This document shows, piece by piece, positions 22,526 to 50,737 of a DNA stretch of 64,000 nt (positions within the stretch are counted from its first letter, which is position 1; every line of letters starts with the position of its first letter). The translations under genes were made by a program, and so were the position numbers. Below the pieces are notes generated by a model. That model was not told the DNA's origin. It saw only the letters and a list, made by a program, of their open reading frames with translations, and did not search any database. The stretch is from an uncultured Actinomycetes bacterium (GTDB taxonomy: Bacteria > Actinomycetota > Actinomycetes > Nanopelagicales > Nanopelagicaceae): assembly GCA_903838295.1 (NCBI GenBank), contig CAILXX010000007.1:489-64488 (forward strand), written 5' to 3'.

Positions 22526-23596
22526 CTATAAATTCGAGCTTAAACCAAGCTTTTCTGCCATCCAATCTGCAGTAAAATAACGATGTTCGTTGGGAACATT
22601 GGCACATCCGTGATTGCCACGTTCTAGCATTAGCAATTCGCTATTACCCTTCATGATCTCGTGCATTTTGACCGCTTCTTGCCACGGAATCAATCGATCC
22701 ATCTTGCCGCCGACGATCAAAGTAGGACACTTAATCATTTCGAGGCGACCTTCGTTGGACAAAGTGAGAGCATGTTGTTCTGCATCCGCATCGTCTTTTG
22801 AAAATGATCGAACCGTAAACGTTTCTCTACTTAATGCAGGTAGGTCTTTCCACAATTTTCCAAAGTTGTAAGGTCCGCAGAGCGAGACGCAGGCCTTGAT
22901 ACGTGGATCTCCTGATGCAAAACGAGGTGCATAGTAACCACCAAGACTTACGCCCCAGACTGCAATTTTCTCGTTATTGATATCTGCGCGACTGATTAAG
23001 TAATCGACGATCGCGCGACCCGGGATTTCCCAATCAGCACGAATTGGTAGGTCGTATTCGGCTTCGCCTTGACCTGGGCCATCGACGCTAAAAGTCGCCA
23101 TACCCCGTTCTAAAAATAAGTTTTCGGTCGGATTAAATTCTTCTTTTGTCGAGTCTAAACCGGGAACCAGAATCACAACGGGGTACGGACCTTCTCCGTG
23201 CGGCTTGCGTAAGATGCCAACCATTTTTGCGCCTTCAAATGGGATCTCTATGCGTTCGCCAGGAAACTCGATGTACTTGATTGCAATTTCACGACAGCGG
23301 ACGGCATTGAAATGCGCGACCTTCATCTCTTCGTAATGACGAACGAAGACAAATTTGGCGAAATGATAAAAGGCAGATGCCGTGCTGTAATGCGCACCGG
23401 CTGATTTGTAGTGCTTTTTGGCTAGGGCTTCCTCGCCCATTTGCTCGTATTGTGCCCCGCCCTTAGAAAAGGCTGCACACCAGTCATCCCACGATTCCAA
23501 CCCCTGGGTCGTACGTTCGAAGTCCACAACCGAGACGCCATTTGATGTAAAACGAGGCGCCCAATGGGCCTTGGCTGAAGCTACATATTCGTCCAT
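22526..23596 (-). CDS. Alpha/beta hydrolase, 2,6-dihydroxypseudooxynicotine (DHPON)-hydrolase-like, paralog 1
   Basis: N-terminal helical cap HWAPRFTSNGVSVVDFERTT...YHFAKFVFV, then PGLDSTKEEF and the nucleophile elbow GVSLGGYYA. I prefer the ATG at 23596 (GAAAGG 6 nt upstream) to the listed TTG at 23614. Confidence 0.8.
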   Translation of the reverse strand: MDEYVASAKAHWAPRFTSNGVSVVDFERTTQGLESWDDWCAAFSKGGAQYEQMGEEALAKKHYKSAGAHYSTASAFYHFAKFVFVRHYEEMKVAHFNAVRCREIAIKYIEFPGERIEIPFEGAKMVGILRKPHGEGPYPVVILVPGLDSTKEEFNPTENLFLERGMATFSVDGPGQGEAEYDLPIRADWEIPGRAIVDYLISRADINNEKIAVWGVSLGGYYAPRFASGDPRIKACVSLCGPYNFGKLWKDLPALSRETFTVRSFSKDDADAEQHALTLSNEGRLEMIKCPTLIVGGKMDRLIPWQEAVKMHEIMKGNSELLMLERGNHGCANVPNEHRYFTADWMAEKLGLSSNL

Positions 23597-23609
23597 ATGG
23601 GGCCTTTCT

Positions 23610-23623
23610 TGCAATCGATTGCG
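23610..23623. promoter_or_regulatory. LacI-type operator candidate, site 1 (TGCAATCGATTGCG)
   Basis: 14-bp near-palindrome with a central CG, directly abutting the RBS of the minus-strand hydrolase gene. One of five related sites. Confidence 0.6.
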
Positions 23624-23700
23624 GATAGAGGGAATTTAACGGACGGCAAGCCAAAGGGGAAGACCTATCCAGCAGGCAAATACCCTGTTACGTTCCCGCA

Positions 23701-24588
23701 ATGGCTCGAATTGGCTTTTTAGGACTCGGTGATATGGGTCAAGTGATCATTCCGCGCTTGATGGCAGCCGGCCACGAAGTAACCGGATGGAATCGCACTC
23801 CTGGCAAAGATGCAGACCTGAAGAAATTGGGAATGCTGATCGGTGGATCCCCGGCAGATATTGCACACACAAGTGATTTCATATTTTCGATCGTTACAAA
23901 TGGTGAAGCGGTTCGAGAAATTTCGCTTGGCAAAGATGGAGTGATTCACGGAATATCCGACCAAGCTGTTTATTTAGACATGAGCACCATAGAGCCAGAA
24001 GTTAGTAGAGAAGTACATCATGCATTTAAAGCGGTAGGAAAGATCATGGTGGATGCACCAATATCTGGAAGCCCGGTGACTATTGCACAAGGCAAAGCAT
24101 CGCTGATGATCGGTGGTGATCCAGAAGTTTTCCCAAAGGTGGAGAAGGTCTTACTTGATATTGGAGCCAAGGCAACGTACATCGGTACTAGCGGACTAGC
24201 CACACAAGCAAAACTTTCCATTAACTCGCTATTGATGATCGAAGTAATTGCGTTTGGCGAAGCCGTTGCGCTTGCAGAAAAAGGTGGTGTAGATAGAGCA
24301 ATAATGGTCAATGCAATTCTCAATAGTGTTGCGGCTTCACCCGTACTTGGCTACCGTGGACCATTTATTCTTAAAGGCAATATGCCTGATAAACCCTTAG
24401 CGGATGTTCGAGTACAGCAAAAGGATATGTCACTTGTTTTAGAACAGGGACGTAGATTAGCTATGGCTTTGCCAATCGCTGCATCGGCTAATGACATGAT
24501 GAATGTCTGCCGCGGAATGGGAATCGGTCACAAAGATTTTGTCGTCGCACACGAAGCGTATTTGCGCATGGGAGGAATCACCGAATGA
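23701..24588 (+). CDS. NAD(P)-dependent oxidoreductase, 3-hydroxyisobutyrate / tartronate-semialdehyde reductase family
   Basis: Rossmann motif IGFLGLGDMG, MVDAPISGSP and a helical C-terminal domain. TACGTT-N6-ATG lies upstream (leaderless type). Confidence 0.85.
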   Translation: MARIGFLGLGDMGQVIIPRLMAAGHEVTGWNRTPGKDADLKKLGMLIGGSPADIAHTSDFIFSIVTNGEAVREISLGKDGVIHGISDQAVYLDMSTIEPEVSREVHHAFKAVGKIMVDAPISGSPVTIAQGKASLMIGGDPEVFPKVEKVLLDIGAKATYIGTSGLATQAKLSINSLLMIEVIAFGEAVALAEKGGVDRAIMVNAILNSVAASPVLGYRGPFILKGNMPDKPLADVRVQQKDMSLVLEQGRRLAMALPIAASANDMMNVCRGMGIGHKDFVVAHEAYLRMGGITE

Positions 24589-24998
24589 AGCCAGATCTAT
24601 ATGTAACTAATTTAAAAGATGTCCCGGTAGTCGAAGGCCTGCGCCGAGATGAAGGGTGGGTCAATATGCAGGTCCAGTTTGCGATAGATAAAGCAAAGGC
24701 GGGATCTGACAATTTGTTGGTGGGTTGGACGGTAATGCCACCTGGAGCCATGCACGATCGCCATCGTCACTCTAATTGCGAAGAGTTTTGGATAGTGGTT
24801 GAAGGCGACGGCATTATGTACACGAATGACGGCGAACGACCAGCGCACAAGGGGGATTTTGTATTGATCCCACGTGGCCACTGGCATGGGTTCAAGAACA
24901 CATCTAATCACGATGCGGTTTTGGCTTGGGGTTGGAGCGGTGCCGGATCACTCGAAGATTCTGGATACGAAGCGGACCAAGACAATCACCACCGATAA
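24585..24998 (+). CDS. Cupin-domain protein
   Basis: Metal motif context HDRHRHSNCEEFWIVVEG ... HWHGF. 4-nt overlap with the upstream gene. Confidence 0.75.
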   Translation: MKPDLYVTNLKDVPVVEGLRRDEGWVNMQVQFAIDKAKAGSDNLLVGWTVMPPGAMHDRHRHSNCEEFWIVVEGDGIMYTNDGERPAHKGDFVLIPRGHWHGFKNTSNHDAVLAWGWSGAGSLEDSGYEADQDNHHR

Positions 24999-25689
24999 TT
25001 GGCGTAAGGATCCTCGACTTACAGCAGGGTATGCAGCGTTAAAGACAAAATTAATTTTTGATCAAGCTGCTCGCAATAAGCAGGTTGGATGGAAATTAGG
25101 ATTTGGATCCCCGACAGGATTGGCCAACCTAAAACTCGGAGCACCTTTGGCTGGGTACCTTTTAGCTGAACGTGCGTTAACCAATAACGCCCATGTGGAC
25201 ATTAAGGATTGGGTAAAGCCAGTCGGTGAAGCAGAGATCGTGGTTTATTTTGATCGCGATGTCAGACCAGGATCATCGCAGGATCTTGTTCTGCAAGCCA
25301 TTTGTGCCATAGGACCCGCAATCGAGTTGGCAGATTTAGAATTTATTCCCGACGATCCGACAAAAATATTGGGTACGGATATATTTCAGAAACATTACAT
25401 ATTAGGTGATCGCGATGATTCACGTCGGGGTGGAGTAATCGATGGATTAATCGCGCGGATCACCATGCCCGATGGTTCTGAGAAGGTCGTCACAGAACTT
25501 GAAGAGTTGATCGGCAAACTTCCAGAGATAGTCACGCATTGTGCAGACGTTGTCGGTGATTTTTCTGGTGGTATCAAGAAAGGCGAATTTATTTTGATTG
25601 GTTCGATTGTGCCGCCAATTGCTTTAACCGCTGGTGGGCTTTTTAGATATTCGTTGGGTGATTATTTGGCCTTGGAAGTGAATTTTTAA
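24913..25689 (+). CDS. 2-oxopent-4-enoate hydratase / 4-oxalocrotonate decarboxylase-like (MhpD family, FAH fold)
   Basis: GWKLGFGSPTG...GAPLAGYL matches the G-x-K-x-G-x-T/S hydratase N-terminal signature. The start is ambiguous (GTG 24874, ATG 24886, ATG 24913 or GTG 24940) and every option overlaps the cupin gene. Confidence 0.6.
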   Translation: MRFWLGVGAVPDHSKILDTKRTKTITTDNWRKDPRLTAGYAALKTKLIFDQAARNKQVGWKLGFGSPTGLANLKLGAPLAGYLLAERALTNNAHVDIKDWVKPVGEAEIVVYFDRDVRPGSSQDLVLQAICAIGPAIELADLEFIPDDPTKILGTDIFQKHYILGDRDDSRRGGVIDGLIARITMPDGSEKVVTELEELIGKLPEIVTHCADVVGDFSGGIKKGEFILIGSIVPPIALTAGGLFRYSLGDYLALEVNF

Positions 25690-25729: not shown

Positions 25730-25743
25730 TGCAAACGATTGCA
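25730..25743. promoter_or_regulatory. LacI-type operator candidate, site 2 (TGCAAACGATTGCA)
   Basis: 14-bp palindrome (one central asymmetry) placed over the predicted +1 of the 25699/25721 promoter. Confidence 0.65.
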
Positions 25744-25762: not shown

Positions 25763-27496
25763 TTGGAGATAAACCATGCTCATGGCGGTGCGCTGCTTAC
25801 GTCATTATTGATCGAGCACGATGTCGAATATGTATTTGGTTTACCAGGCGGTCAGACTTATGCCTTGTACGACGGGATCGATCATCGCTCAGAAATTAAG
25901 CATGTATTAGTCCGCGACGAACGCACCGGTGTTTATGCAGCAGACGGTTATGCCCGTGCCACTGGAAAGGTGGGGGTATGTGACGCTACCGTCGGACCAG
26001 GTGCCGCAAATCTTCCCGCAGGTCTAGGCGAAGCGCTAGGTGCATCAATTCCGATTGTTGCTTTGGTCAGCGCATTGCCGGCAAATTTAACTTTGCATCA
26101 ATATCGCTCTGCGGCTTCACAAGCGATGGATCAAGTCAATTTATTAGCACCGGTATCAAAGTGGTACGCCACCGTACCTAGCCTGCAAGCCATGCCAGCT
26201 TTAGTTAGACAGGCTTTTCAGCAAGCCACAACTGGGCGTCCTGGCCCAACCGTATTGTTCTTGCCGCAAGATATTTTAGATTCGAAATTACCAGACGAGA
26301 TGCTCCACCTATTAGAAGCGACTACAGAACGTTCTCGGTTTGGACAATTTCCTGCATTTAGGACGGCGCCAGATGTCGAGGATATTGCTGCAGCTGCAAA
26401 AATATTTGGCACAGCTAAGAAGCCAATTATTGTTGCTGGTGGCGGTGCACTGATATCTGGCGCGATCAAAGAAATTACCGATTTTGCAGATGCGCAGTCG
26501 TGTGCGGTTGCAACAACCTTGTCCGGTAAAGGTGTCATCGCAGAGAACCATTCATTGGCTGTCGGAGTTGTTGGGCAAATGGGAACCCCGGCTGCAGTAG
26601 CGGCGCTTGATGCTGCCGATGTGGTGCTGTTTGTGGGAACAAAGGCAGGTAGTGGTCCAACATTTGGCTGGAGTCGCCCACGTCCTGATCAAAAAATTAT
26701 TCAGATTGATATTGATCCTGCAGAAATTGGTCGTTCATTTGCAAAAGTGACCGGAGTCTTTGCAGATGCTCGCAGTGGAATGCGTTCACTTGCTAGTGCG
26801 GTAGGCACCAATCTACGCCCAGAGTGGAAGTCAGAAGTTGCGAAAATAAAAGAAGATTGGGCTACCGCACGTCACGCCGAACGAACAAGTGAGGCCAAGC
26901 CAATTTTGCCTCAGCGGGTACTTGGCGAATTGCAATCGCTGTTGCGTGAAGATGATCTGATTGTTTGTGACGCAAGTCTGTCTAGTGGCTGGGCTGGTGT
27001 TTATTACGAGCAAAATCTGCCGGGCAAGAAAGTCTTCATGCCTCGTGGTCTTGCCGGTCTTGGATATTCGGTTCCAGCTGCCATTGGAGTTGCGATTGCA
27101 AATCCGGGAAAACGAACCATTGTTCTTACCGGTGATGGCGCTTTGGGCTATTCAATCGGCGAATTCGCAACGATCCTAGAACTTAAATTGCCGATCACGG
27201 TTGTTGTTTTAAATAATGCACAGCTGGGATGGATCCGTTGGTACAGCCACCTCAACTTTGGTACATCCGATCATGGTACTGACTTTGCTGATATTGATTT
27301 TAGTGCGGTAGCAAAGGGCTTTGGCTTCGAAGCAGAACGTGTGGTTGATCCATCACTGTTAGCCATGTCGCTAAAGCGGCTCTTAGAAAGTGAGAAACCA
27401 AGCTTGATCGATATTATTACCGAGACTTGGACGACCCCGGTGTCAGGCCACAAAATTGCACTCGCCAAGAAACAATCAACCGGATACGGAGGGTAA
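25763..27496 (+). CDS. Thiamine-diphosphate-dependent enzyme, acetolactate-synthase-like
   Basis: N-terminal Pyr domain VFGLPGGQTYALYDG and the C-terminal TPP motif GDGALGYSIGEFATI...VLNNAQLGW. TTG at 25763 (GGAG 9 nt upstream) is preferred to the listed TTG at 25739. Confidence 0.85.
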   Translation: MEINHAHGGALLTSLLIEHDVEYVFGLPGGQTYALYDGIDHRSEIKHVLVRDERTGVYAADGYARATGKVGVCDATVGPGAANLPAGLGEALGASIPIVALVSALPANLTLHQYRSAASQAMDQVNLLAPVSKWYATVPSLQAMPALVRQAFQQATTGRPGPTVLFLPQDILDSKLPDEMLHLLEATTERSRFGQFPAFRTAPDVEDIAAAAKIFGTAKKPIIVAGGGALISGAIKEITDFADAQSCAVATTLSGKGVIAENHSLAVGVVGQMGTPAAVAALDAADVVLFVGTKAGSGPTFGWSRPRPDQKIIQIDIDPAEIGRSFAKVTGVFADARSGMRSLASAVGTNLRPEWKSEVAKIKEDWATARHAERTSEAKPILPQRVLGELQSLLREDDLIVCDASLSSGWAGVYYEQNLPGKKVFMPRGLAGLGYSVPAAIGVAIANPGKRTIVLTGDGALGYSIGEFATILELKLPITVVVLNNAQLGWIRWYSHLNFGTSDHGTDFADIDFSAVAKGFGFEAERVVDPSLLAMSLKRLLESEKPSLIDIITETWTTPVSGHKIALAKKQSTGYGG

Positions 27497-27501
27497 CAAC
27501 C

Positions 27502-28272
27502 ATGCCACGCCACCCAGAACGCCAACTAGAAAGAATTTCACAACCTGTTGCAGCAGAGTTGATGAAGAAGAGTGGGGTAGCAGTCGTAGTTGCTGGAAGC
27601 ATCGAGCAACACGGAAGCCACTTGCCCCTAGGAACAGATTTGTTTGCTGCCTTATCAATCGGAGAGCGCGTTGCAGAAAGATTAAACACAATTGTTGTGA
27701 CACTTGGTTCAGTTGGCATCGCGCACTATCACGCTGGCTGGGCCGGCTCTTTAACTCTTAAGCCAGAGACAATGATTAGCGTCTTTGTGGATATCTGCGA
27801 AGGGCTCAAAGAAGCCGGAGCAAACCGAATTTTGGTGGTCAACTGGCATGAAGGAAATTCTGCAACGATGCGGATTGCAGCTGACCGCGCGCAAATGGTT
27901 CATGGAGTACAAGTAGTTGTTGGTGAGTCACATATCATCACAAATTCATTGCATCCAGAGGAGATGGAATTTACACATTCTGGCGCCATGGAGACATCTG
28001 CAGTTCTTGCATATGATGCATCATTAGTGCATTTGGATCGCTTGGCGGCGCCGAGTGATCGCGAAGCGGGGGATGAAGCACACGAGCTTTTCCGCCGCCG
28101 TGATGTGTATCCAATCATGCGCGATTTTCATGATGTCGCCCCCACGGGTTGGTATGGACATCCAGAAACAGCCACGGTTGCAAGATCAGAAGAGATTGCC
28201 GAAGAAGTTGCGGATCACATTGTTCGTAGGGCAAAAGAAGTCTGGGATGCACTAGGAAAGGTTTCTCACTGA
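27502..28272 (+). CDS. Creatininase-family (creatinine amidohydrolase fold) metal hydrolase
   Basis: GSIEQHGSHLPLGTD, NWHEGN and HSGAMETS match PF02633 motifs. ATG at 27502 with GGAGGG upstream. The listed 27427 start would overlap the previous gene by 70 nt. Confidence 0.85.
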   Translation: MPRHPERQLERISQPVAAELMKKSGVAVVVAGSIEQHGSHLPLGTDLFAALSIGERVAERLNTIVVTLGSVGIAHYHAGWAGSLTLKPETMISVFVDICEGLKEAGANRILVVNWHEGNSATMRIAADRAQMVHGVQVVVGESHIITNSLHPEEMEFTHSGAMETSAVLAYDASLVHLDRLAAPSDREAGDEAHELFRRRDVYPIMRDFHDVAPTGWYGHPETATVARSEEIAEEVADHIVRRAKEVWDALGKVSH

Positions 28273-29330
28273 TGACTGAGCAAAAAACAATGCGGGCCGC
28301 TGTTTTAGCGGACTTTGGTTCACTATCGGTTACGGATGTTGCGATTCCAGAACTTGAATACGGCGAAGTCTTGTGTCGAGTCAACGCATGTGGGATGTGC
28401 GGTACCGATCTAAAGATTGTTAACGGTGGATTTAAGGGAACCTGGCCACCAAGCATGCCTTTCATCTTGGGACACGAATGGTCTGGAACCATTGTAAAAA
28501 TGGGTGCTGGTACCGAAAAGAGTGGACTTGCGGTCGGAGATCGAGTCGTCGCAGAGAACCATGCTGGTTGTTCCGCTTGCGTGATGTGCCGACAAGGTCG
28601 TTATAACTTATGCGATCGTGTCAAAGATCCTGGTTTCAAGTTGTACGGTCACACAGCTCCTGGTGCATTGGCAGAATTTGCATCACGTCCAGCAGTAGCG
28701 GTTCATAAAATTCCTGACTCTGTTTCTGATCTTGCGGGTGCCCTTGTTAACCAAGCAGCCCTAACAGTCCATGCCGGGCGCCGTGCTGATATTCGTCCTG
28801 GTTCTACCGTCGCAGTTTATGGCCCAGGTCTCTTGGGACTTTTGATGTTGCAAGTTGCACGCGCTGCTGGCGCAACACAGGTAATTGTTGTGGGACGTGG
28901 CGCTCGGTTGGAGACCGCGCTAGAACTTGGCTGCGATGCTGTCGTAGATTATGAAAAATCTGATCCGGTCGCAGAGATCCGTCGCATGACGGGTGGACGT
29001 GGAGTTGATTACGTTTTTGACTGCTCTGGCAATCCTGCAGTTGTCGAGCAGCTTTTTAGATCCACGCGCCGTGGCGGCAAGATCGCGATGTTGGGTTTGA
29101 CTGGCGGTCAGACCGCAACCCTGCCAATCGATCTATTGGCATTGGACGAGATTGACCTCCTGGGAGTTCGCTCAAGCCCCAATTGTTATCCAGCGACGAT
29201 TGCCCTGATCGCCTCCGGAGCCATCAAGACCGAACCGCTGACGACTTTTACCTACGGTCTAGATCAGATAGACGAGGCCTTTGCGGCTCTGGAATCCCGC
29301 CAGGTCATTCGCCCGATCGTGCTCCTCTAA
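28272..29330 (+). CDS. Zinc-dependent alcohol/polyol dehydrogenase (MDR family)
   Basis: CGMCGTDLK, GHEWSG and the structural-zinc cluster CSACVMCRQGRYNLC, plus the Rossmann motif VYGPGLLG. 1-nt overlap (TGATG) with the upstream gene. Confidence 0.85.
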   Translation: MTEQKTMRAAVLADFGSLSVTDVAIPELEYGEVLCRVNACGMCGTDLKIVNGGFKGTWPPSMPFILGHEWSGTIVKMGAGTEKSGLAVGDRVVAENHAGCSACVMCRQGRYNLCDRVKDPGFKLYGHTAPGALAEFASRPAVAVHKIPDSVSDLAGALVNQAALTVHAGRRADIRPGSTVAVYGPGLLGLLMLQVARAAGATQVIVVGRGARLETALELGCDAVVDYEKSDPVAEIRRMTGGRGVDYVFDCSGNPAVVEQLFRSTRRGGKIAMLGLTGGQTATLPIDLLALDEIDLLGVRSSPNCYPATIALIASGAIKTEPLTTFTYGLDQIDEAFAALESRQVIRPIVLL

Positions 29331-29411: not shown

Positions 29412-29425
29412 TGCAAACGATTGCG
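29412..29425. promoter_or_regulatory. LacI-type operator candidate, site 3 (TGCAAACGATTGCG)
   Basis: Same 14-mer family, immediately downstream of the -10 element and 44 nt upstream of the binding-protein ATG. Confidence 0.65.
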
Positions 29426-29468: not shown

Positions 29469-30725
29469 ATGCATAAATTAAGGCTTGGCAGTGTTGCCAA
29501 CCGACGTAAGGTTCAAATCGGCGCTGTACTTGGCGCTGCCGCTCTAGCAGTTACGGGACTTACAGTTCCTAATGCAATTGCAGCTGGTAAGCCGATCACG
29601 ATCGGTATCTCTGTATCACTTTCTGGCGACTTCTCCGGTGACGGTGTCGCTACCCAACAAGGTTACAAAATTTGGGCTGCATGGCAGAACGCGCACGGCG
29701 GAATTCTTGGACGTCCAGTTGTCCTGAAGTTCTTGTCTGATGCCTCAAGCCCTACGCAAGTCGTAACTAACTACCAAAAATTTATGACAGCAGACAAAGT
29801 TGACTTTGTCCTCGGACCTTACTCAACTAAGTTGACCAAGCCAGCATCAAATACTGCAAATCGTTATCACTATGTAATGCTTGAAGGAATTGGCGGCGGA
29901 CCATCCGTCTTCTCACGTGGCTTGAAGAACGTCTTCGATGTATCTGCATCGGCTACGTATCAGTTAGTTACTTATGCAAAGTGGTTGGCCGCAACACAGA
30001 AGCCACAGCCAATTGCATACGCAACAATGGATGATCCATTCATTCAACCAATGGTGGATTATGCTCGTGCTTATCTTGATAAGAAGGGCTTCACTGAAGC
30101 CGTTTACAAGGTATACCCAGCAGAGACAACAGACTTCTCACCTATCGCTTCGGCTGTAGCTGCTACAGGCGCGAAGATTGCAATCTTGGGAACTATGCCA
30201 CCTGATGGTTATGCGATGGTTCAGAATTTCATTCAGGCTAAGTACAACCCAGAGCAATTGATTATGGCTTCAGGACCTGACCAAGGTGCTGACTTCACCA
30301 AGAGCGTGGGAATTACAAACACTGAAGGATTGATGGTTCCAAATACTTGGATTCCAACATCTAACTACCCAGGTAACAAAGATATGGTTGCTGCGTATAT
30401 CAAGGCTTACGGCGGAGATATCAATGCAATCAATGCTGACGTTCCTGAAGCATTCGCAGCAGGTCAAGTTCTAGCCGAAGCTGTTAACAAAATTGGATCT
30501 ACTGACAACAAGAAGTTGCAGGCCTATCTACACTCTGGTGCTTCATTCACCAGTGTTCAGGGTCCGGTTCAATTCGCAGCAGATGGTCAAAACTCTGGTG
30601 CCGCTCCTTATGTCTTCCAATGGCAGAAGGGCGTTTACCTTCCAGTATTGCCACTTGGCGGTCCTGACAAGGTTTCACCAATCGAGACAATGCGTCCCGA
30701 TTGGGGTACCACACCAGGTATGTAA
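29469..30725 (+). CDS. ABC transporter substrate-binding protein, LivJ/type-1 PBP family
   Basis: Signal peptide RRKVQIGAVLGAAALAVTGLTVPNAIAAGKP, then ITIGISVSLSGDFSGDG typical of Leu/Ile/Val-type binding proteins. GGGAGG precedes the ATG at 29469. Confidence 0.85.
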   Translation: MHKLRLGSVANRRKVQIGAVLGAAALAVTGLTVPNAIAAGKPITIGISVSLSGDFSGDGVATQQGYKIWAAWQNAHGGILGRPVVLKFLSDASSPTQVVTNYQKFMTADKVDFVLGPYSTKLTKPASNTANRYHYVMLEGIGGGPSVFSRGLKNVFDVSASATYQLVTYAKWLAATQKPQPIAYATMDDPFIQPMVDYARAYLDKKGFTEAVYKVYPAETTDFSPIASAVAATGAKIAILGTMPPDGYAMVQNFIQAKYNPEQLIMASGPDQGADFTKSVGITNTEGLMVPNTWIPTSNYPGNKDMVAAYIKAYGGDINAINADVPEAFAAGQVLAEAVNKIGSTDNKKLQAYLHSGASFTSVQGPVQFAADGQNSGAAPYVFQWQKGVYLPVLPLGGPDKVSPIETMRPDWGTTPGM

Positions 30726-30737
30726 CAAATAATTGCC

Positions 30738-30781: not shown

Positions 30782-30813
30782 AAAAACACTTCAACACTTG
30801 GAGGCTTAATAGC

Positions 30814-43607: not shown

Positions 43608-44660
43608 TTAGAGGTGATCGACCATCCAGTCACCGGCTAGTGGGTGATACAGGTACGGATAGTTATTACAGACGTGATTGCCGTCATCAATCATAACTAG
43701 CTTGGCATTCTTCGCCTCTGCCACGACTCTTTCTGCGTGCTGATACGGAACCAAGCGATCTTTCTTACCAAAGATAACAAGTAATGGCTGCGTAAGATTC
43801 TGCAAGCACCCTTCGAGGGTGATGCTGTCAGCGACTTTTCTTGCCTCATCTTCAGTTGATGCGCCAGAATATTGATAAAAGGCGGCGCGACTAATCGGTG
43901 GGCGTGCGTCGTATCGACTTCCGGTGTCATACGAACCACCAACCGTGACTGCTACCTTAATACGCGAATCATGCGCGGCGCTTCTGGCAGCGTAATAGCC
44001 GCCCATACTGACGCCTACTACTCCAAGTCGTTCTGCATCGATATCTTTACGAGTTAAAAGTTCATCGATAGCTACTTTGATCGCGCTCTCATAATTTGGT
44101 CTCAGTGGAAAGTAAAAACCAGATTCGCCTTGACCGGGTCCATCGAATGAGAATGTTGCAAGACCGCGAGTGATAAATACATTCTCCCAATTAAAGAATT
44201 CTTCTTTGGTCGAATCAAGTCCTGGTAGCAAGATCACCACTGGTGGATGGCTTACACCTGCTGGCTTTCGCAAGTTACCAACTAACTGGTGGCCTTCGAA
44301 TGGAATTTCTACTCTTTCAGCGCTTGAATCCAAATTTTTATGGGCACGCAGTAAAGCATCGATTGACTTCTCTGTTGCCATTTTATGTTTTGCCATATCT
44401 AAAACCCATACAAATTTTGCGAAGTGATAACTCAGGGCAGCGCGATTCCAGGCATTCCCGGCGCTTATTTTGTGTCCTGCCACTTCTGCTTCACTCGCTA
44501 GTCCCGCGTGCATATCACCGTTAGCTACCCATGCATCTAGCCACTGAGACCAAGTTTCAAGGCTATTGGTTACACGCGCAAAATCATTGGCATCGACGCC
44601 TTGAGTTATAAATCTTGGTGCCCAATGATCTATGGCTGATTGAATATCGGAATCTCTCAT
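43608..44660 (-). CDS. Alpha/beta hydrolase, DHPON-hydrolase-like, paralog 3
   Basis: HWAPRFITQGVDANDFARVT...YHFAKFVWV, PGLDSTKEEF and the nucleophile elbow GVSMGGYYA. TAGCAT-N6-ATG on the minus strand in the 34-nt gap after the LacI gene. Confidence 0.8.
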   Translation of the reverse strand: MRDSDIQSAIDHWAPRFITQGVDANDFARVTNSLETWSQWLDAWVANGDMHAGLASEAEVAGHKISAGNAWNRAALSYHFAKFVWVLDMAKHKMATEKSIDALLRAHKNLDSSAERVEIPFEGHQLVGNLRKPAGVSHPPVVILLPGLDSTKEEFFNWENVFITRGLATFSFDGPGQGESGFYFPLRPNYESAIKVAIDELLTRKDIDAERLGVVGVSMGGYYAARSAAHDSRIKVAVTVGGSYDTGSRYDARPPISRAAFYQYSGASTEDEARKVADSITLEGCLQNLTQPLLVIFGKKDRLVPYQHAERVVAEAKNAKLVMIDDGNHVCNNYPYLYHPLAGDWMVDHL

Positions 44661-44694: not shown

Positions 44695-45714
44695 CTACTT
44701 TTTCAGAACTGGACCCGTTGACTCGCGGACGACAAGGGTCACCGGCAAGGTGATTTTTCTTGGCCCAGGTTCATTTCCTTGGATCTGACTGAGCAATAAT
44801 CGCGCAGCTTCTGCGCCCATTTCAAAATGTGGCGCACTTACTGTTGTCATCGGAGGCTGAAAATCTTCTGAGAATGGCATGTTATTGAATCCTATGACCG
44901 AAATATCTTGTGGTGTGCGAAGACCGTGTTGACGAATTGCGTGGTAGACGCCCAACGCTAACAAATCATTACCTGCAACCACTGCGGTGATCTCTTTCGG
45001 ATGTGCGTCCAAAAATTTATTCATCGCCATTTGGCCGGCCTCTACTGAAAGCGTGGTTGCCTTTACAATTTTTGTAGTCAGTCCTAACCGTTTTGCAGTA
45101 TCTGTGAATGCTGTGCTTCGGACCCGTGATGTAGAAAGCGTGGCTGGTCCAGAAAGATGAAGTATTTTTTTGTGGCCGAGTTTGACTAGATGTTCGAGTG
45201 CTGATGCGATTCCAGACGCATCATCTCCAATAACAGATGGATAGGGAACACCGGAAGCTTCACGGTTAACCATCACAGCTTTAACTCCTTGATTGTGATA
45301 TTTGGCGATCATGCTTCTTTCGGTATGGCCAGTTGCAATTATCAGGCCATCAACTTGGCGTTCCATTAACGAATCAAAGAGTGCATCTTCTACGGCCGCA
45401 TTGTTATCGGTATTGACGACCATCGCTGAATAGCCGCGTGACTGCAAGACGCTGTCGACACCTCGAACTATCGGTGGAAAAATTGGATTTGTGAGATCTG
45501 GCACGATGACGCCGATTGTCATGGATTTACGAGTTCGCAATCCGCGAGCCATTGTGTTGGGGGTATATCCAAGTTCTTGCGCAATTTTGCGGACCCTTTT
45601 CACGGTTTCTGCGCTTACCTGACCTTCGGTCTCGCTGTTGAGCGATCGCGAAACCGTACTGGTGTTAACCCCAGCCGCCTTGGCTACATCGGCCAAAGTC
45701 ACTCGATTACGCAT
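44695..45714 (-). CDS. LacI/GalR-family transcriptional regulator
   Basis: N-terminal HTH VTLADVAKAAGVNTSTVSRSLN, the hinge GYTPNTMARGLRT, then a type-1 periplasmic-binding-fold core. TAGTGT-N6-ATG on the minus strand. Confidence 0.9.
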   Translation of the reverse strand: MRNRVTLADVAKAAGVNTSTVSRSLNSETEGQVSAETVKRVRKIAQELGYTPNTMARGLRTRKSMTIGVIVPDLTNPIFPPIVRGVDSVLQSRGYSAMVVNTDNNAAVEDALFDSLMERQVDGLIIATGHTERSMIAKYHNQGVKAVMVNREASGVPYPSVIGDDASGIASALEHLVKLGHKKILHLSGPATLSTSRVRSTAFTDTAKRLGLTTKIVKATTLSVEAGQMAMNKFLDAHPKEITAVVAGNDLLALGVYHAIRQHGLRTPQDISVIGFNNMPFSEDFQPPMTTVSAPHFEMGAEAARLLLSQIQGNEPGPRKITLPVTLVVRESTGPVLKK

Positions 45715-45779: not shown

Positions 45780-45793
45780 TGCAATCGATTGCA
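45780..45793. promoter_or_regulatory. LacI-type operator candidate, site 5 (TGCAATCGATTGCA, perfect palindrome)
   Basis: Perfect 14-bp palindrome in the divergent gap between the LacI gene and the 45820 operon, just downstream of the -10 element of the + strand promoter. Confidence 0.7.
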
Positions 45794-45819: not shown

Positions 45820-46761
45820 ATGACCATCAGTCCAAAGCCAACTATCGGTTGGATCGGTGCGGGGCGTATGGGATTCCAGTTGGCCACTCGACTTTTAGAT
45901 GCAGGGCACGATGTCACCGTTTATAACCGGACGCGTGCAAAAGCAGAGCCACTGGTGCAAAAAGGCGCAAAGGTTGTTGATCATCCAAGTGAACTTGCAG
46001 GACTCGACGTTGTTTTTATTATGGTCTCTGCACCAAAAGATTTAGAAGATGTCACTATGGGCGCCAATGGCGTATTGACCGTTGACGGCAAATCTCCCAA
46101 AGTAATTATTGATTCATCAACTGTATCAACCGAAGTATCGGAGAAGGTTCGAGCATTTGCTAAAACTAAGGGCACAGAACTCCTTGCAGCCCCTGTCAGC
46201 GGAAATCCAGCTGTAATTGCAGCTGGGAAACTTACCGTTGCGGTTTCTGGACCTAAAGATGTTTACGAACAAGTTGCAGGATTGATCAATCTCTTTGGCC
46301 GCAAGGTTACGTATGTGGGCGAAGCAGAAGTTGCTCGCCTAGTAAAGATCGCGCATAACATCATGCTTGGTGTCGTCACACAGACACTGGCAGAGATCAT
46401 AACGTTGACCGAAAAAGCCGGCGTAGAACGCGCGGCATTCTTAGAATTCCTCAACGATTCAGTGATGGGATCAACATTTACTAAATACAAGTCCCCATCA
46501 ATTGTTAATTTAGATTTCACACCAACATTTACGATTCCGCTCCTTCTGAAGGATTTTGATCTTGGACTTGACGCGGCTCATGAGCTTAAAGTTCCGATGC
46601 CAATTACATCTGCGGCGCAACAAATCACCGCTTCTGCTTTAGGAGCAGGGTATGTTGATGAAGATTTTATGGTTCTCCTTATAGAACAAGCCCGCCGCTC
46701 TGGAATGACACTAGTTTCTGAAAATAAGAAAGTATTGAGTGGACTGGAAGTGGAAAAATAA
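45820..46761 (+). CDS. NAD(P)-dependent oxidoreductase, 3-hydroxyisobutyrate-dehydrogenase family (second copy)
   Basis: Rossmann motif IGWIGAGRMG, LLAAPVSGNP and a helical C-terminal domain. GAGGAG RBS. Confidence 0.85.
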   Translation: MTISPKPTIGWIGAGRMGFQLATRLLDAGHDVTVYNRTRAKAEPLVQKGAKVVDHPSELAGLDVVFIMVSAPKDLEDVTMGANGVLTVDGKSPKVIIDSSTVSTEVSEKVRAFAKTKGTELLAAPVSGNPAVIAAGKLTVAVSGPKDVYEQVAGLINLFGRKVTYVGEAEVARLVKIAHNIMLGVVTQTLAEIITLTEKAGVERAAFLEFLNDSVMGSTFTKYKSPSIVNLDFTPTFTIPLLLKDFDLGLDAAHELKVPMPITSAAQQITASALGAGYVDEDFMVLLIEQARRSGMTLVSENKKVLSGLEVEK

Positions 46762-48005
46762 TGGCCAACACCCCTCAACTACAAGCGCCAGGCCACATGG
46801 GTGTTGACTATGAGATGCGCGTGGATTTTGATCGGTTGCGTAAATATCGGATTGGTCGTGCGAAGGCCTCGTTAGAGGCAAGTAAGTGCGGAGCTTTTTT
46901 GCTCTTTGATTTTTACAATATTCGTTACACAACTCAGTCGTGGGTTGGTGGAGCTCTTGGTGACAAGATGACTCGTTATTCATTGCTCACTCGCGGGGGC
47001 GAACCCATGCTGTGGGATTTTGGTTCTGCTGTCCGTCACCACAAGTTGTATTCGCCATGGCTGAAAGAAGAGAACAATCGTCCAGGAATGCTTGGTATGC
47101 GCGGTGCAGTTGCACCGTCTGCTGGCTTGATGGAGTCAGCTGTTAAAGAGATCAAAGGTTTATTGATTGACGCTGGCGTCGCTGATCAACCAGTAGGTAT
47201 TGATATCGTCGAACCCGCATTTTTATTTGAAATGCAACGTCAAGGTCTAACCGTGGTTGATTGTCAGCAAGACATGCTTGATGCTCGGGTAATTAAGAAC
47301 CAAGACGAAATTATGTTGCTAAATCAAGCGGCAGCGATGGTTGATGGCGTCTATCAAAATATTGTTGACGTCCTGAAGCCTGGCATCCGCGAAAATGAGA
47401 TCGTTGCTCTAGCAAACAAGCGTTTGTACGAGATGGGTTCAGATCAAGTCGAAGCAATCAATGCGATCTCTGGCGAACGCTGCAATCCTCATCCGCACAA
47501 TTTCACCGACCGGATTATCCGCCCAGGAGATCAAGCTTTCTTTGACATCATCCATTCATTCAATGGATATCGCACTTGTTATTACCGCACATTTGCAGTG
47601 GGCAGTTCTACCCCGTCACAACGTGACGCATATACAAAGGCGCGTGAGTGGATGGACGCCGCAATCAATGCAGTAAAGGTCGGAACAGATACAGCTGCTA
47701 TTGCAAAGGTCTGGCCAAAGGCAGAAGAATTTGGCTTTGCCAGTGAACTTGCCGCCTTTGGGTTGCAGTTTGGACACGGCCTGGGCCTTGGACTTCACGA
47801 GCGTCCAATTATTTCTAGGCTCAATAGTTTAGAAAACCCGGTCGAAATTCGCCCAGGCATGGTCTTTGCACTCGAAACGTATTGCCCAGCTTCCGATGGT
47901 TTCTCTGCAGCGCGTATCGAAGAAGAAGTGGTTGTCACAGATAATGGAATTCATATTTTGACGAAGTTTCCGGCCCAAGAACTCTTTGTGGCTAACCCTT
48001 ACTAA
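46761..48005 (+). CDS. M24-family metalloenzyme (creatinase/Xaa-Pro peptidase fold), DddP-like
   Basis: Pita-bread C-terminal half with DIIHSFNGYRTCYYRTF, QFGHGLGLGLHERP, VFALETYCPASDGFSAARIEEEVVVT and TKFPAQELFVANPY. The N-terminal LLFDFYNIRYTTQSW resembles what I recall of DddP-type members (from memory only). Confidence 0.75.
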   Translation: MANTPQLQAPGHMGVDYEMRVDFDRLRKYRIGRAKASLEASKCGAFLLFDFYNIRYTTQSWVGGALGDKMTRYSLLTRGGEPMLWDFGSAVRHHKLYSPWLKEENNRPGMLGMRGAVAPSAGLMESAVKEIKGLLIDAGVADQPVGIDIVEPAFLFEMQRQGLTVVDCQQDMLDARVIKNQDEIMLLNQAAAMVDGVYQNIVDVLKPGIRENEIVALANKRLYEMGSDQVEAINAISGERCNPHPHNFTDRIIRPGDQAFFDIIHSFNGYRTCYYRTFAVGSSTPSQRDAYTKAREWMDAAINAVKVGTDTAAIAKVWPKAEEFGFASELAAFGLQFGHGLGLGLHERPIISRLNSLENPVEIRPGMVFALETYCPASDGFSAARIEEEVVVTDNGIHILTKFPAQELFVANPY

Positions 48006-48010
48006 TTACG

Positions 48011-48538
48011 ATGACAACCGGCAAAGGAATTCCTGGGTTACAACGTGTAGATCACGTTGGGATTACGGTGCCCAATTTAGAAGAAGCAACTCGATTCTTT
48101 ATTGATGTCTTAGGTTGCGAATATATGTACACGCTAGGGCCCTTTGCTAGCGATGAGAATTGGATGAAAGAACACTTGAATGTTGATCCACGTGCGGTAA
48201 TGAAAGAGCTACATTTCTTCAGGTTAAATGGTGCCGCGATTTTTGAAGTATTTGAATATCAAGCACCCGATCAGCAAACTTTCGTACCAAAGAACAGTGA
48301 CGTTGGTGGCCACCATGTTGCTTTATATGTCGATGATATGGAAGCTGCAATTGCGCACTTAAAGTCTCACGGAATCACAATGCTGGGCGAACCCACTGCA
48401 AGTAAAGGTCCGAGTGAAGGCCAGCATTGGTTATACTTTTTATCGCCTTGGGGAATGCAATTCGAATTAGTTTCGTATCCCAACGGCAAAGCTTTCGATC
48501 ACCACCCCGAGAAGTTCGTCAAGAAGGTAGTAAATTAA
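48011..48538 (+). CDS. VOC-family protein (glyoxalase / extradiol-dioxygenase fold)
   Basis: GLQRVDHVGITVPNLEEATRFFIDVLG and GGHHVALYVDDMEAAIAHLKSHG, typical paired beta-alpha-beta-beta-beta modules. Confidence 0.75.
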   Translation: MTTGKGIPGLQRVDHVGITVPNLEEATRFFIDVLGCEYMYTLGPFASDENWMKEHLNVDPRAVMKELHFFRLNGAAIFEVFEYQAPDQQTFVPKNSDVGGHHVALYVDDMEAAIAHLKSHGITMLGEPTASKGPSEGQHWLYFLSPWGMQFELVSYPNGKAFDHHPEKFVKKVVN

Positions 48539-50737
48539 ATGGCGCTTCATAATAAGCACAAATCCACTGCTCCTTGGCTAGAAGTAGTCGTTATGCCCTC
48601 GGACTGGGATAACGCAGATCCACAGGTACTCAACAATATGTTGGTCGAAATGGTTCTGATCCGTACCTTTGAAGAATATTTATTGGAACTTGCTGCTGCA
48701 ACGTTAATTCATGGGCCGGTTCATTCCAGCATTGGTCAAGAGGGTGGCGCAGTTGGTTCTGCGCTTTTGCTTCGCAGCGCCGATAGCGTAAATGGTTCGC
48801 ACCGTGGCCACCATCAATTCTTAGCGAAAGTTTTTACTCATTTACAGCCACAAGGGTATGACCCACGTGCCGAATTTTCGGCAGATATCCGTGATGCAGT
48901 GCTTCGAACAATGGCAGAAATTGCTGGCCTTGATCGCGGCTTTAGCCATGGTCGTGGTGGATCAATGCATTTACAGATGAAGGAAGCCGGCGCAATGGGT
49001 ACTAATGCCATCGTCGGTGGCGGAGTTCCGCTTGCCGCAGGTTTTGCGTGGTCCCATAAATTTGCAGGAACTGATGCAGTTTCTGTGACATATTTTGGTG
49101 ATGGTGCGATCAACATTGGATCGACGCTAGAAAGTTTCAACTTGGCTGCTGCCTGGAAACTACCGATCTGTTTCTTTATCGAAAATAATATGTACGCGGT
49201 TTCCACGCATGTTTTGGAATCCACCGGCGAACCTCGGTTGTCCGCCCGTGGCCAAGGTTTCAATATCCCAAGCTGGAAGGTTGATGGCATGAACCCACTT
49301 GCGGTTTATATCGCCATGACCGAAGCGGTTGCGCATATGCGCGCTGGTAACGGACCAACGATGATCGAAGCCGATGTCTATAGGTACTACCATCAGAGTG
49401 GCACCTTCCCTGGCAGCGCATTTGGTTATAGAACAAAAGAAGAAGAAGCAAGTTATAAAGCGCGTGATCCGATCTTGCAGGTATCTACACAAATGATTCG
49501 CCGTGGGCTTATAACCCAGCCAGAGATTGACTTGTTGATTGCTCGTGCTAAATCATTGATGTCCGATACTGGCAATATTCTGCTCGAACCTATTCCAGAT
49601 TCGAATCCACCTAAGCGCAAGATCAAAGATAGCGAATGGCCAGATCCAGCATTCGTTAATACTGGTGTCCGTGGCGATCTTTCAGAATTTAATGGGGCCA
49701 GGTATGCCGAACTTGAAAATTATGGGGGAGAAATCACCCAAGCCAAATTCATAGATTCTGTTGCAAATGTTTTGGGTCGTCAGTTAGAGAAAGACTCAAG
49801 TGTTGTGATCATGGGTGAAGATATTCACCGCTTAGCCGGTGGAACCAATGGTGCAACAAAAGGACTCAAGGATCGTTTCCCAGATCGTATTCTTGGTACT
49901 CCCATCAGCGAAAATGGTTTTACGGGCCTTGGCGGCGGTATCGCAATTGATGGCCGGTTCAAACCCATTGTGGAATTCATGTATGCCGACTTTATGTGGG
50001 TAGCAGCGGATCAAATTTTTAATCAGATCGGCAAGATGCGTCACATGTTTGGTGGTACCGGCGCAGTTCCATTTGTACTTCGCAGTAAGGTTGCAATGGG
50101 TACAGGGTATGGGTCACAGCATTCGATGGACCCCGCTGGAATCATGGCAACAAATCCCGGTTGGAGAATTGTTTCTCCGACGACTCCCTTTGATTATGTT
50201 GGACTCATGAACAGCGCAATCTTGTGTAAAGACCCTGTGATTGTCTTGGAGCACGTTGATTTATATAACTCAACCGGGCCGACCCCAACCACTGATCTGG
50301 ACTATTGCATCGAAGTAGGTAAGGCTGCGATTAGACGCCCTGGTAAAGATTTGACTGTACTCACGTATATGGCAATGACGCAGTACACACTTGATGGAGT
50401 TGCAGAATTTGGAGAGATTGATGCCGAAGTCATTGATCTGCGCTGGTTAGACCGCGCAAGCATTGACTGGGAAACAATCGGCAATTCGATTAAAAAGACT
50501 GGCCATGTTTTGATCACTGAACAAGGTGCAATCGGTACTTCCTATGGCGGATGGCTAGCGGATGAAATTCAACGCCGATTCTTCCATGAGCTCAAAGGGC
50601 CAATTGAGCGAGTCACCGGTGGGGAAGCCTCTCCTTCTATTAGCAAGGTATTAGAACGTGCCGCGATTGCAAAGAGTGAAGAAGTTGTCACCAAGCTGCG
50701 CTCGCTTTATGAGTCTGGCCGATTTAGCGGCAAGTGA
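48539..50737 (+). CDS. Fused E1 alpha-beta component of a TPP-dependent 2-oxoacid/acetoin dehydrogenase
   Basis: The N-terminal half is E1-alpha-like (HSSIGQEG, SHRGHH, YFGDGAINIG, ENNMYAVST). The C-terminal half is E1-beta-like (MGEDI, GTPISENGFTG, EFMYADFMW). It is a single 732-codon ORF starting 1 nt after the VOC stop. Confidence 0.85.
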   Translation: MALHNKHKSTAPWLEVVVMPSDWDNADPQVLNNMLVEMVLIRTFEEYLLELAAATLIHGPVHSSIGQEGGAVGSALLLRSADSVNGSHRGHHQFLAKVFTHLQPQGYDPRAEFSADIRDAVLRTMAEIAGLDRGFSHGRGGSMHLQMKEAGAMGTNAIVGGGVPLAAGFAWSHKFAGTDAVSVTYFGDGAINIGSTLESFNLAAAWKLPICFFIENNMYAVSTHVLESTGEPRLSARGQGFNIPSWKVDGMNPLAVYIAMTEAVAHMRAGNGPTMIEADVYRYYHQSGTFPGSAFGYRTKEEEASYKARDPILQVSTQMIRRGLITQPEIDLLIARAKSLMSDTGNILLEPIPDSNPPKRKIKDSEWPDPAFVNTGVRGDLSEFNGARYAELENYGGEITQAKFIDSVANVLGRQLEKDSSVVIMGEDIHRLAGGTNGATKGLKDRFPDRILGTPISENGFTGLGGGIAIDGRFKPIVEFMYADFMWVAADQIFNQIGKMRHMFGGTGAVPFVLRSKVAMGTGYGSQHSMDPAGIMATNPGWRIVSPTTPFDYVGLMNSAILCKDPVIVLEHVDLYNSTGPTPTTDLDYCIEVGKAAIRRPGKDLTVLTYMAMTQYTLDGVAEFGEIDAEVIDLRWLDRASIDWETIGNSIKKTGHVLITEQGAIGTSYGGWLADEIQRRFFHELKGPIERVTGGEASPSISKVLERAAIAKSEEVVTKLRSLYESGRFSGK

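Follow-up and report, generated by a model that had tools for sequence, protein, structure and literature searches.

A 14-bp palindrome occurs five times in a 64,000-nucleotide stretch of contig CAILXX010000007.1, from an uncultured Actinomycetes bacterium of the Nanopelagicaceae (the whole stretch is called the window below; G+C 47%). In the form TGCAAWCGATTGCA it very probably serves as operator for the LacI-family regulator whose gene is at 44695-45714, and the genes around it are predicted to constitute the regulon of this protein. The number of sites exceeds chance, their position is intergenic and close to promoters, and they are conserved together with the regulator and the target gene families across the phylum. 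The sites, named O1 to O5, are as follows.

23610..23623, O1, TGCAATCGATTGCG, 22.9 bits; invariant in six congeneric sequences with variable flanks (alignment A2)
25730..25743, O2, TGCAAACGATTGCA, 23.9 bits; footprint in alignment A3
29412..29425, O3, TGCAAACGATTGCG, 21.3 bits; footprint in alignment A4
39043..39056, O4, AGCAAACGATTGCA, 19.5 bits; in the divergent gap between a crtI-like gene and qor, kept in the congener loci L095 and L097 (alignment A6)
45780..45793, O5, the perfect palindrome TGCAATCGATTGCA, 25.4 bits; footprint over eight species (alignment A5)

All coordinates were verified and there are exactly five copies. The degenerate pattern WGCAAWCGATTGCR matched these sites only in the 64 kb, and it was not matched at all in 100 dinucleotide-preserving shuffles of the window. 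Within the window no further site was found at up to two mismatches from TGCAATCGATTGCA. When three mismatches were allowed, ten extra matches were obtained against 5.5 expected, i.e. the chance level. A weight matrix was then derived from 164 motif sites of other genomes (see below). It scored the five sites at 19.5-25.4 bits; the runner-up position in the window, located in coding DNA, reached 11.3 bits, and the maxima of 20 window shuffles had a mean of 10.5 bits, the highest being 16.6.

An earlier note on this DNA had claimed that the palindromes are always intergenic and fill five of the few sizeable gaps. Both statements held. In a mechanical list of open reading frames (ORFs) three sites were overlapped by genes, solely via over-extended TTG starts. 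The start codons of hyd1 (hydrolase), tpp (thiamine diphosphate, ThDP, enzyme) and sbp (binding protein) were corrected by alignment with relatives: ATG at 23596, TTG at 25763 (GTG in most relatives) and ATG at 29469, respectively. After this correction all five sites are intergenic. Between 22.5 and 50.7 kb, five of the six gaps of more than 60 bp hold a site, the exception being the sbp-livH gap (30726-30813). The sites are thus confined to a single 28-kb block, with none in the remaining 36 kb. Their flanks have no common similarity apart from promoter elements, and three of the five have AACGAT at the centre instead of ATCGAT.

The perfect copy O5 adjoins the only LacI-family gene of the window, as the earlier note had also said.

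44695..45714, minus strand: LacI-family regulator of 339 amino acids

At its N-terminus the protein has a LacI-type helix-turn-helix (HTH; PF00356, residues 6-53, 61.7 bits versus a cut-off of 27), and at its C-terminus a type-I periplasmic-binding-protein-like effector domain (PF00532, 135.8 bits; PF13377, 128.7 bits). The hinge A56-R57-G58-L59-R60 is invariant in 16 relatives (alignment A1), as are residues of the HTH. By position we equate L59 with the operator-inserting leucine, i.e. Leu54 in PurR and Leu56 in LacI. Relatives are present in Nanopelagicaceae (71% identity) and Microbacteriaceae (about 60%), and the identical protein was found on many lake metagenome contigs. Against the NCBIfam equivalog models the regulator remained below every cut-off. 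The best models were RbsR (259 bits versus a cut-off of 382), CytR and UriR. Its closest solved relatives are CcpA structures (E 6e-46).

We examined the conservation of the motif in a comparative set of 80 loci (1.43 Mb, one genome per species, up to 10 kb on each side of the regulator relative). These loci were fetched via the LacI protein only, using alignment A1. The regulator relatives in them are 45-71% identical, and the set covers Nanopelagicaceae, Microbacteriaceae, Mycobacteriaceae, Nocardioidaceae, Streptomyces, Streptosporangiales and Thermoleophilia at a G+C of 47-76%. Allowing up to two mismatches, 164 sites were called; 2.1 were expected from first-order Markov simulations. At least one site was present in 74 of the 80 loci, usually either some 70-80 bp upstream of the regulator gene or immediately behind it. 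The upstream zone, defined as the DNA up to 350 bp 5' of any homologue of a block gene, comprises 5.4% of the 1.43 Mb and received 142 of the 164 sites (87%; P ~1e-153). The coding DNA of the block-gene homologues, 36% of the sequence, holds a single one. Most of the 21 unassigned sites precede genes for an aldehyde dehydrogenase (ALDH), an MFS transporter, an aminotransferase or a TRZ/ATZ-type amidohydrolase. A matrix scan of orthologous loci for intergenic enrichment and conservation was the check that the earlier note had named, and the outcome bears out its claim.

In close relatives the individual sites are retained as well. O1, O2 and O3 are kept in congener metagenome contigs in which the ThDP enzyme is 80-82% identical, O4 and O5 in congener contigs with a regulator 77-80% identical. 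In the intergenic alignments A2-A6 the -35 element (TTGACn), the -10 element, the operator and the ribosome-binding site are conserved and the DNA between them varies. Outside the lineage of the window the operators are mostly paired: 28 of 37 close pairs are spaced by 63-111 bp, one operator per divergent promoter (e.g. at 7722 and 7826 in locus L036). The window, unlike this, has single operators only.

The block between thymidylate kinase, DNA polymerase III delta', MurT/GatD, DEAD-box helicase and LytR genes, all of them housekeeping genes, contains the following units. Families were assigned with Pfam and NCBIfam models and by sequence searches of solved structures.

22526..23596, minus strand: hyd1, homologue of C-C (retro-Claisen) hydrolases of the DHPON-hydrolase/AntI/Ayg1 family (FrsA-like; PDB 2jbw, E 4e-41)
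23701..25689, plus strand: hibadh1 (beta-hydroxyacid dehydrogenase), a cupin and an MhpD/DmpE-like FAH-fold hydratase/decarboxylase (Pfam, NCBIfam)
25763..29330, plus strand: tpp (acetolactate-synthase-like ThDP enzyme), a creatininase-fold hydrolase and a Zn alcohol dehydrogenase, ADH (Pfam, NCBIfam)
29469..34225, plus strand: Liv-type (HAAT) ABC importer with the binding protein sbp (29469..30725), two permeases and two ATPases (Pfam)
34197..37447, plus strand: acyl-CoA-dehydrogenase-family protein, hyd2 and a DHDPS-family lyase, after the importer in the same direction
37444..39012, minus strand: CrtI/amine-oxidase-family flavoprotein (PF01593; Pfam, NCBIfam)
39099..43602, plus strand: quinone-oxidoreductase-like protein (qor), FMN_bind protein, MFS transporter and CocE/NonD-family hydrolase, kept with O4 in congeners
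43608..44660, minus strand: hyd3, third FrsA/DHPON-hydrolase-like alpha/beta hydrolase paralogue (Pfam; 42% identical to hyd1)
45820..48005, plus strand: hibadh2 and an M24 enzyme with overlapping stop and start codons, the most conserved pair of the regulon
48011..50737, plus strand: a protein of the VOC family and a 2-oxoacid dehydrogenase E1 with alpha and beta fused; in the lineage of the window both belong to the operon of hibadh2 and M24

A spacer of 34 bp separates hyd3 from lacI, which precedes it in the same orientation; this arrangement is kept in congeners.

How are the operators placed with respect to the promoters? O1 lies 9 nt downstream of the -10 hexamer of hyd1 (TAAATT, minus strand), and a further 13 nt separate it from the start codon of this gene. 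O2 begins 3 nt past the -10 of the tpp promoter (TTGACT-16-TAGGAT, 25699-25726, from a promoter scan). O3 begins 2 nt past the inferred -10 (29404-29409) of the sbp promoter TTGACA-17-TACCTT, which has its -35 at 29381-29386. O5 begins 7 nt past the -10 of the hibadh2 promoter (TTGACG-17-AATAAT, 45744-45772, again from the scan). In the qor promoter, TTGCAT-17-AAGAAT, the inferred -35 (39052-39057) is overlapped by the right half of O4; 30 nt lie between the same operator and the start codon of the divergent crtI-like gene. Judged by position, an operator would therefore abut or overlap the core promoter of six units comprising 21 genes, which is the classical repressing position.

Two genes differ in their 5' ends. 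A conserved TAnGTT hexamer (here TACGTT, 23689-23694) precedes the ATG of hibadh1 by 6 nt, and a conserved TATCGT/TAGTGT hexamer (in the window TAGTGT, minus strand, within 45714-45726) is at the same distance from the ATG of lacI, both without a Shine-Dalgarno sequence. The remaining block genes have clear GGAG-type ribosome-binding sites. Because of the hexamer 6 nt before the ATG and the missing Shine-Dalgarno sequence, both mRNAs are probably leaderless.

We propose the following mechanism. A dimer of the regulator would bind each operator via HTH and hinge, as LacI/GalR proteins do, the leucine of the hinge being placed at the central CG. Located just past the -10 and over the transcription start (hyd1, tpp, sbp and hibadh2) or on the -35 (qor), the bound dimer would block RNA polymerase. 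The units predicted to be silenced in this way are hyd1; tpp-creatininase-ADH; the Liv-type importer together with the acyl-CoA-dehydrogenase-family protein, hyd2 and the DHDPS-like lyase; the CrtI-like oxidase; qor-FMN_bind-MFS-CocE; and hibadh2-M24-VOC-E1 alpha-beta. Derepression would occur on release of the regulator, once its C-terminal domain has bound a small-molecule effector, either the imported substrate or an early intermediate. As predicted from the protein and its sites, the switch itself is standard LacI/GalR in architecture, operator form and placement. The earlier note had put at least six units and about 23 genes under one repressor. The six units it listed are retained, with 21 genes in the repressing position; the list had missed hyd3 (43608-44660) and the hibadh1-cupin-FAH operon, and these belong to two further units of five genes whose direct control is uncertain.

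Several points weigh against this regulon as drawn. Measured upstream from the ATG, the centre of O1 is about 85 bp away from hibadh1 and that of O5 about 72 bp from lacI (near -75 to -85). Because both are outside the core promoters, repression of the hibadh1 unit and autoregulation of lacI are unsupported by position, and direct control of hibadh1-cupin-FAH and of lacI-hyd3 is uncertain. The hexamers of the sbp, qor and hyd1 promoters are our own reading of conserved blocks and not calls of a tool. Binding and effector are predictions, and repression is deduced from position. The scan of the source genome covered the 64-kb window; further sites beyond it are possible. Because the targets of proteobacterial relatives differ (see below), the motif alone does not define one pathway. 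Finally, every enzyme scored far below the equivalog cut-offs, and the substrate proposal given below is one of family-level homology only.

The position of O1 and O5 bears on an alternative, namely that the LacI protein binds, yet is not a simple repressor everywhere. At O1 (hibadh1) and O5 (lacI) it might act as an activator, have no effect or pair with a distant site. Both operators have their centres some 75-85 bp before starts that look leaderless, outside the core promoters, and the operator pairs of other taxa, mostly 63-111 bp apart, are in line with this. However, LacI-family activators are rare. Six units have the operator over the -10/+1 region or the -35, and of the LacI-family regulators 72% are predicted to be autoregulated (PMC4052901). 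On balance we regard this alternative as rather unlikely.

Much less probable is that the palindrome belongs to another factor, a global catabolite regulator or a GntR/FCD regulator, and that the adjoining LacI gene is coincidental. The motif does resemble generic LacI-family boxes; its half-site GCAAACG equals that of the E. coli PurR box, and a GntR/FCD gene is beside VOC/E1 in 13 loci. Yet the loci had been chosen by the LacI protein only, and still 74 of 80 hold the motif, mostly less than 100 bp from lacI. Motif association is lowest (12-25%) in the modules of VOC, E1 and GntR. As a negative control, a Phaeobacter plasmid cluster which has an orthologous M24 gene and no LacI has no motif. 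In addition, the window contains no second LacI gene, and all five sites are in one 28-kb block. That the palindromes are non-regulatory, i.e. due to chance, remnants of repeat elements or restriction-type palindromes, can be practically dismissed: the centre ATCGAT is a ClaI-type site and mobile repeats can spread short palindromes, but none was obtained in shuffles, the flanks are dissimilar, three of five sites have AACGAT at the centre, the position is conserved from 47% to 75% G+C and the exclusion from coding DNA is extreme.

Taking the palindrome as the operator of the LacI protein, we asked which parts of the regulon are shared among taxa. An operon was considered as motif-associated when the motif was at its head. 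The frequencies were highest for operons with hyd1 (96%), the SsuA/THI5-like protein (89%), M24 (80%), MFS (80%), 3-hydroxyisobutyrate-dehydrogenase-type proteins (HIBADH, 77%) and the Liv binding protein (76%). They were intermediate for the aminotransferase (67%), ALDH (65%), lacI (62%) and the CrtI-like protein (50%), and low for E1 alpha-beta and VOC (25%), GntR/FCD (17%) and E2 (12%). The predicted ancestral core is ALDH-M24-HIBADH-hyd1, divergent from SsuA/THI5-like-MFS-lacI, a compact catabolic unit. The smallest complete version consists of just these seven genes with two operators between the two arms (L036, Nocardioides-type genomes). Often the core is joined by the Liv-type importer, the aminotransferase and the PF01593 oxidase. 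Homologues of the importer adjoin the regulator in 38 loci, and in several genomes the CrtI-like gene is divergent from hyd1 with the motif in between.

The lineage of the window has added to this core. The hydrolase is present there in three paralogues (34-42% identity) and HIBADH in two (31% identity), and the ThDP/creatininase/ADH and the qor-FMN_bind-MFS-CocE operons have been gained. The tpp-creatininase-ADH operon with its operator was found only in Nanopelagicaceae relatives (L003, L083-L094). In other taxa VOC and E1 are accompanied by E2 and by their own GntR/FCD regulator. In the window they are under the LacI operator because they are fused to the hibadh2-M24 operon in this lineage. 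LacI control of VOC/E1, which the earlier note had included in the regulon, is by this comparison a lineage-specific addition; in other taxa these genes are usually not motif-associated. The 64 kb of the window strain contain no ALDH of any kind. In congeners an ALDH similar to succinate-semialdehyde dehydrogenase (SSADH) directly follows E1 (L095 3523-4947; L097 1013-2437), and the window runs into murT at this point (50737-50781). In two congeners (L097 and L098) E1 alpha-beta is shortened to a 227-aa remnant. Because ALDH is missing in the window and E1 is truncated in these congeners, the operon tail varies between close relatives.

Adjoining the block are further genes whose homologues are motif-associated in other taxa.

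20123..22521, plus strand: SsuA/THI5-fold cytoplasmic protein, a GxSxG protein (305 aa, no family match) and a CMD-family protein

No operator is in front of these three genes, here or in congeners. The predicted structure of the SsuA/THI5-like protein (pLDDT 95) has a generic class-II binding-protein fold (SsuA/TauA/ThiY/Thi5) and lacks a signal peptide; a fold search with the model gave no enzyme-specific neighbour.

Beyond Actinomycetota, LacI proteins of 41-42% identity are encoded on plasmids of Shinella sp. HZN7, Rhizobium leguminosarum and Cupriavidus necator N-1. The same motif, at 20-23 bits, is present in their own divergent regions.

L103, 9697-9948: motif sites of Shinella pShin-01
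L104, 9720 and 15274: motif sites of R. leguminosarum
L105, 9844 and 11050: motif sites of C. necator N-1

The cargo there is a Liv-type or TTT importer, an intradiol dioxygenase, a short-chain dehydrogenase/reductase (SDR), a beta-keto-acid cleavage enzyme (BKACE), a Zn-ADH and a cupin. The motif thus marks a LacI subfamily which recurrently stands over non-sugar catabolic genes and Liv-type importers. The combination of a LacI-type repressor with a Liv-type importer had been called atypical in the earlier note. This is correct for the family, in which carbohydrate metabolism is the target of 96% of those groups that have been assigned a pathway (PMC4052901). Within this subfamily, however, it is the rule (the 38 loci above and also Shinella).

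An even palindrome with a central CG, 30-140 bp before the start codons, is the norm of the LacI family (PMC4052901). The regulons of local repressors such as RbsR, CytR, UriR and GalR and the in-silico LacI regulons of RegPrecise (PMC4052901) share with ours the domain architecture, the even 14-bp palindrome and the central CG. Sites outside of coding DNA, a regulator gene within the regulon and operators over core promoters are also common to LacI/GalR repressors. The targets in the window, in contrast to the LacI norm, are non-carbohydrate, and the importer is of the Liv type or MFS. With 21-26 genes in 6-8 units the regulon is near the threshold for 'global' LacI regulons (PMC4052901).

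The regulator is not a PurR orthologue, since it reached 172.7 of the 501 bits of the equivalog model NF007979. The half-site GCAAACG and the central CG of the motif are those of the E. coli pur box, ACGCAAACGTTTGCGT. In comparison, the outer positions of the motif are T/A and not C/G, and most sites have GCAATCG. PurR is a LacI-family member with a non-sugar effector, like the one expected here. It uses a corepressor and targets purine biosynthesis, whereas for the regulator of the window we would infer an inducer, and its targets are catabolic. The CcpA equivalog TIGR01481 was likewise missed (192.6 versus 442 bits). The cre site of CcpA is also a 14-bp palindrome with a central CG; cre sites are distributed genome-wide, those of the window are in one catabolic island. 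Positions 3 and 12 of the motif are C and G where cre has A/T.

What do the enzymes indicate about the pathway? None in the block reached any curated NCBIfam equivalog cut-off. Solved-structure searches with the M24, HIBADH, E1, CrtI-like, binding and regulator proteins returned family-level names only. Hyd1 aligned to DHPON (2,6-dihydroxypseudooxynicotine) hydrolase (2jbw) over residues 35-350, covering the cap and the alpha/beta core, and the Ser (in GVSLGG), Asp and His of its triad fall on chain residues 231, 314 and 343. It is also homologous to the polyketide-shortening enzymes AntI and Ayg1. Hyd2 and hyd3 retain GxSxG. Retro-Claisen cleavage of a 1,3-dicarbonyl is predicted for hyd1; the hydrolase family also includes plain esterases, e.g. 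FrsA.

The M24 enzyme (46761-48005) is 76-94% identical across Actinomycetes, 53-59% in Thermoleophilia and 62-64% on plasmids of Phaeobacter/Tritonibacter. At E <= 1e-40 there are at least 8000 relatives; the best 120 are 87-98% identical and mostly metagenome-derived. Its metal site D262-C273-H339-E372-E387 is invariant in 61 of 61 orthologues, including the Phaeobacter plasmid copy. Cys273 is at the position of the second metal-binding Asp of the pita-bread site (Asp220 in Pyrococcus prolidase). To our knowledge no characterised M24 enzyme has a Cys in place of this Asp. Alignment over the full length (residues 22-406) was obtained with DddP structures only. The non-peptidase M24 enzymes DddP, DoeA/EutD (ectoine hydrolase) and creatinase share the pita-bread fold with it; none of them is known to have the Cys that invariably replaces the second metal-binding Asp here.

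In Phaeobacter gallaeciensis the M24 cluster of pGal_E78 reads SDR-M24-E1alpha-E1beta-lipoyl protein-SSADH-E2-LpdA (L099 9347-20315; M24 64% identical), and it adjoins a sugar-type ABC transporter and a ThuA-domain gene. Because this cluster has M24, ALDH and a 2-oxoacid dehydrogenase without LacI, the association of the three is older than LacI control.

As to the other proteins, the ALDH of relatives had the SSADH subfamily TIGR01780 as its best model (523.8 and 572.7 bits, below the cut-off of 646). The two HIBADH-type dehydrogenases scored 146 and 139 bits against the HIBADH equivalog TIGR01692 (cut-off 292); the nearest solved relatives of hibadh2 are glyoxylate/succinate-semialdehyde reductase-type proteins. 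For E1 alpha-beta pyruvate dehydrogenase models were best, under the cut-off. The binding protein sbp has a distant likeness to Leu/Ile/Val-binding proteins and to an Agrobacterium amino-acid-binding protein.

With low confidence we propose the uptake of a compound that is small and polar, probably contains nitrogen, and is either cyclic or a beta-dicarbonyl. The DHPON-hydrolase-like enzyme would cut one of its C-C bonds, and the M24 enzyme with its Cys would break a C-N (or C-X) bond. The resulting omega-hydroxy or omega-aldehyde acid might then enter central metabolism via the beta-hydroxyacid dehydrogenase and the SSADH-like dehydrogenase. For the cyclic or N-heterocyclic substrate at which the earlier note had guessed the support is circumstantial; the ring-cleaving dioxygenase of the proteobacterial module lends the idea of a cyclic compound some indirect support.

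Judged by gene families, the nearest described logic is that of the lower nicotine pathway, with a likeness at the family level only. In the pAO1 pathway of Paenarthrobacter nicotinovorans DHPON hydrolase releases N-methylaminobutyrate, which is converted by a flavin amine oxidase to succinate semialdehyde and further by a dehydrogenase to succinate (PMC6122326). Common to both are homologues of hyd1-3 and a PF01593 oxidase, and in relatives the SSADH-like ALDH and, in some genomes, a nearby molybdenum hydroxylase. Different are the low identity (145 bits), the lack of nicotine-specific enzymes, the regulator family and the hosts, which include oligotrophic lake bacteria. Further, the M24, HIBADH and SsuA/THI5-like proteins have no counterpart in the nicotine pathway.

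Other known routes were considered and rejected. For dimethylsulfoniopropionate (DddP) the model NF043017 gave 91.3 bits versus 600, and Cys273 replaces the second Asp. For ectoine (DoeA/EutD) TIGR02993 gave 54.2 versus 613 bits; the gene order of M24 and an SSADH-like ALDH, with or without the aminotransferase, recalls the ectoine order doeA-doeC-doeD. Creatinine/creatine models were below their cut-offs by a wide margin, with creatinase matching M24 only at E 2e-6. In the Thermotoga-type inositol route the ADH reached 194 of 450 bits for IolM and the creatininase-fold protein 45 of 245 bits for IolN. For the valine/3-hydroxyisobutyrate route the HIBADH equivalog and E1 cut-offs were not reached, and for glyoxylate carboligase and tartronate semialdehyde routes the curated cut-offs were missed widely. 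Homarine degradation (homABCDER) has a pair of an FAD enzyme and its partner without a counterpart here, and its hosts are mainly Proteobacteria. The reported enzyme of homoserine catabolism is a classical homoserine dehydrogenase and not of the HIBADH type. A C3-sulfonate/sulfoquinovose route is an idea with which the families would fit (HIBADH resembling sulfolactaldehyde reductase, the SSADH-like enzyme sulfolactaldehyde dehydrogenase, and the SsuA fold). In that literature no paper was found which ties in an M24 enzyme, and a paper on degraders in freshwater makes no mention of the lineage of the window.

In open-access full-text literature, queried with motif strings and combinations of enzyme names, no description of motif, regulator or pathway was found, and the pathway is probably undescribed. 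Tentatively, as a reading that may well fail, we suggest an undescribed catabolic route extending from the abundant Nanopelagicaceae of freshwater to mycobacteria of soil, Nocardioides, Streptomyces and Thermoleophilia. It would comprise a new Cys-M24 subfamily, a DHPON-hydrolase-like C-C hydrolase, beta-hydroxyacid and SSADH-like dehydrogenases and a LacI subfamily whose effector is not a sugar and is probably cyclic. If so, the proteobacterial module points to a shared or related effector with different chemistry in the two phyla.

The value of so textbook-like a switch is that it provides a handle on the pathway. It ties some 20-26 genes into one co-regulated pathway in acI/Nanopelagicaceae, which are dominant in lake bacterioplankton and hard to culture, and the same core unit is present in culturable soil actinobacteria. 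Identification of the regulator's effector, or of the ligand bound by sbp, would reveal a substrate used by many freshwater and soil bacteria. It would also assign a function to the Cys-site M24 subfamily.

The genes at 20123-22521 follow, on the same strand, an amino-acid permease (16669-18129) and an ORF of 646 aa (18173-20113), in which the sole Pfam/NCBIfam match is 28 residues of a hyaluronate-lyase N-terminal beta-sheet domain. Without a link to the motif, a 956-aa fusion is encoded further away at 10046-12916 on the minus strand, upstream of two ABC exporter genes. It combines an FAD-linked oxidase with a 4Fe-4S dicluster and a CCG domain and resembles glycolate/D-lactate oxidases.

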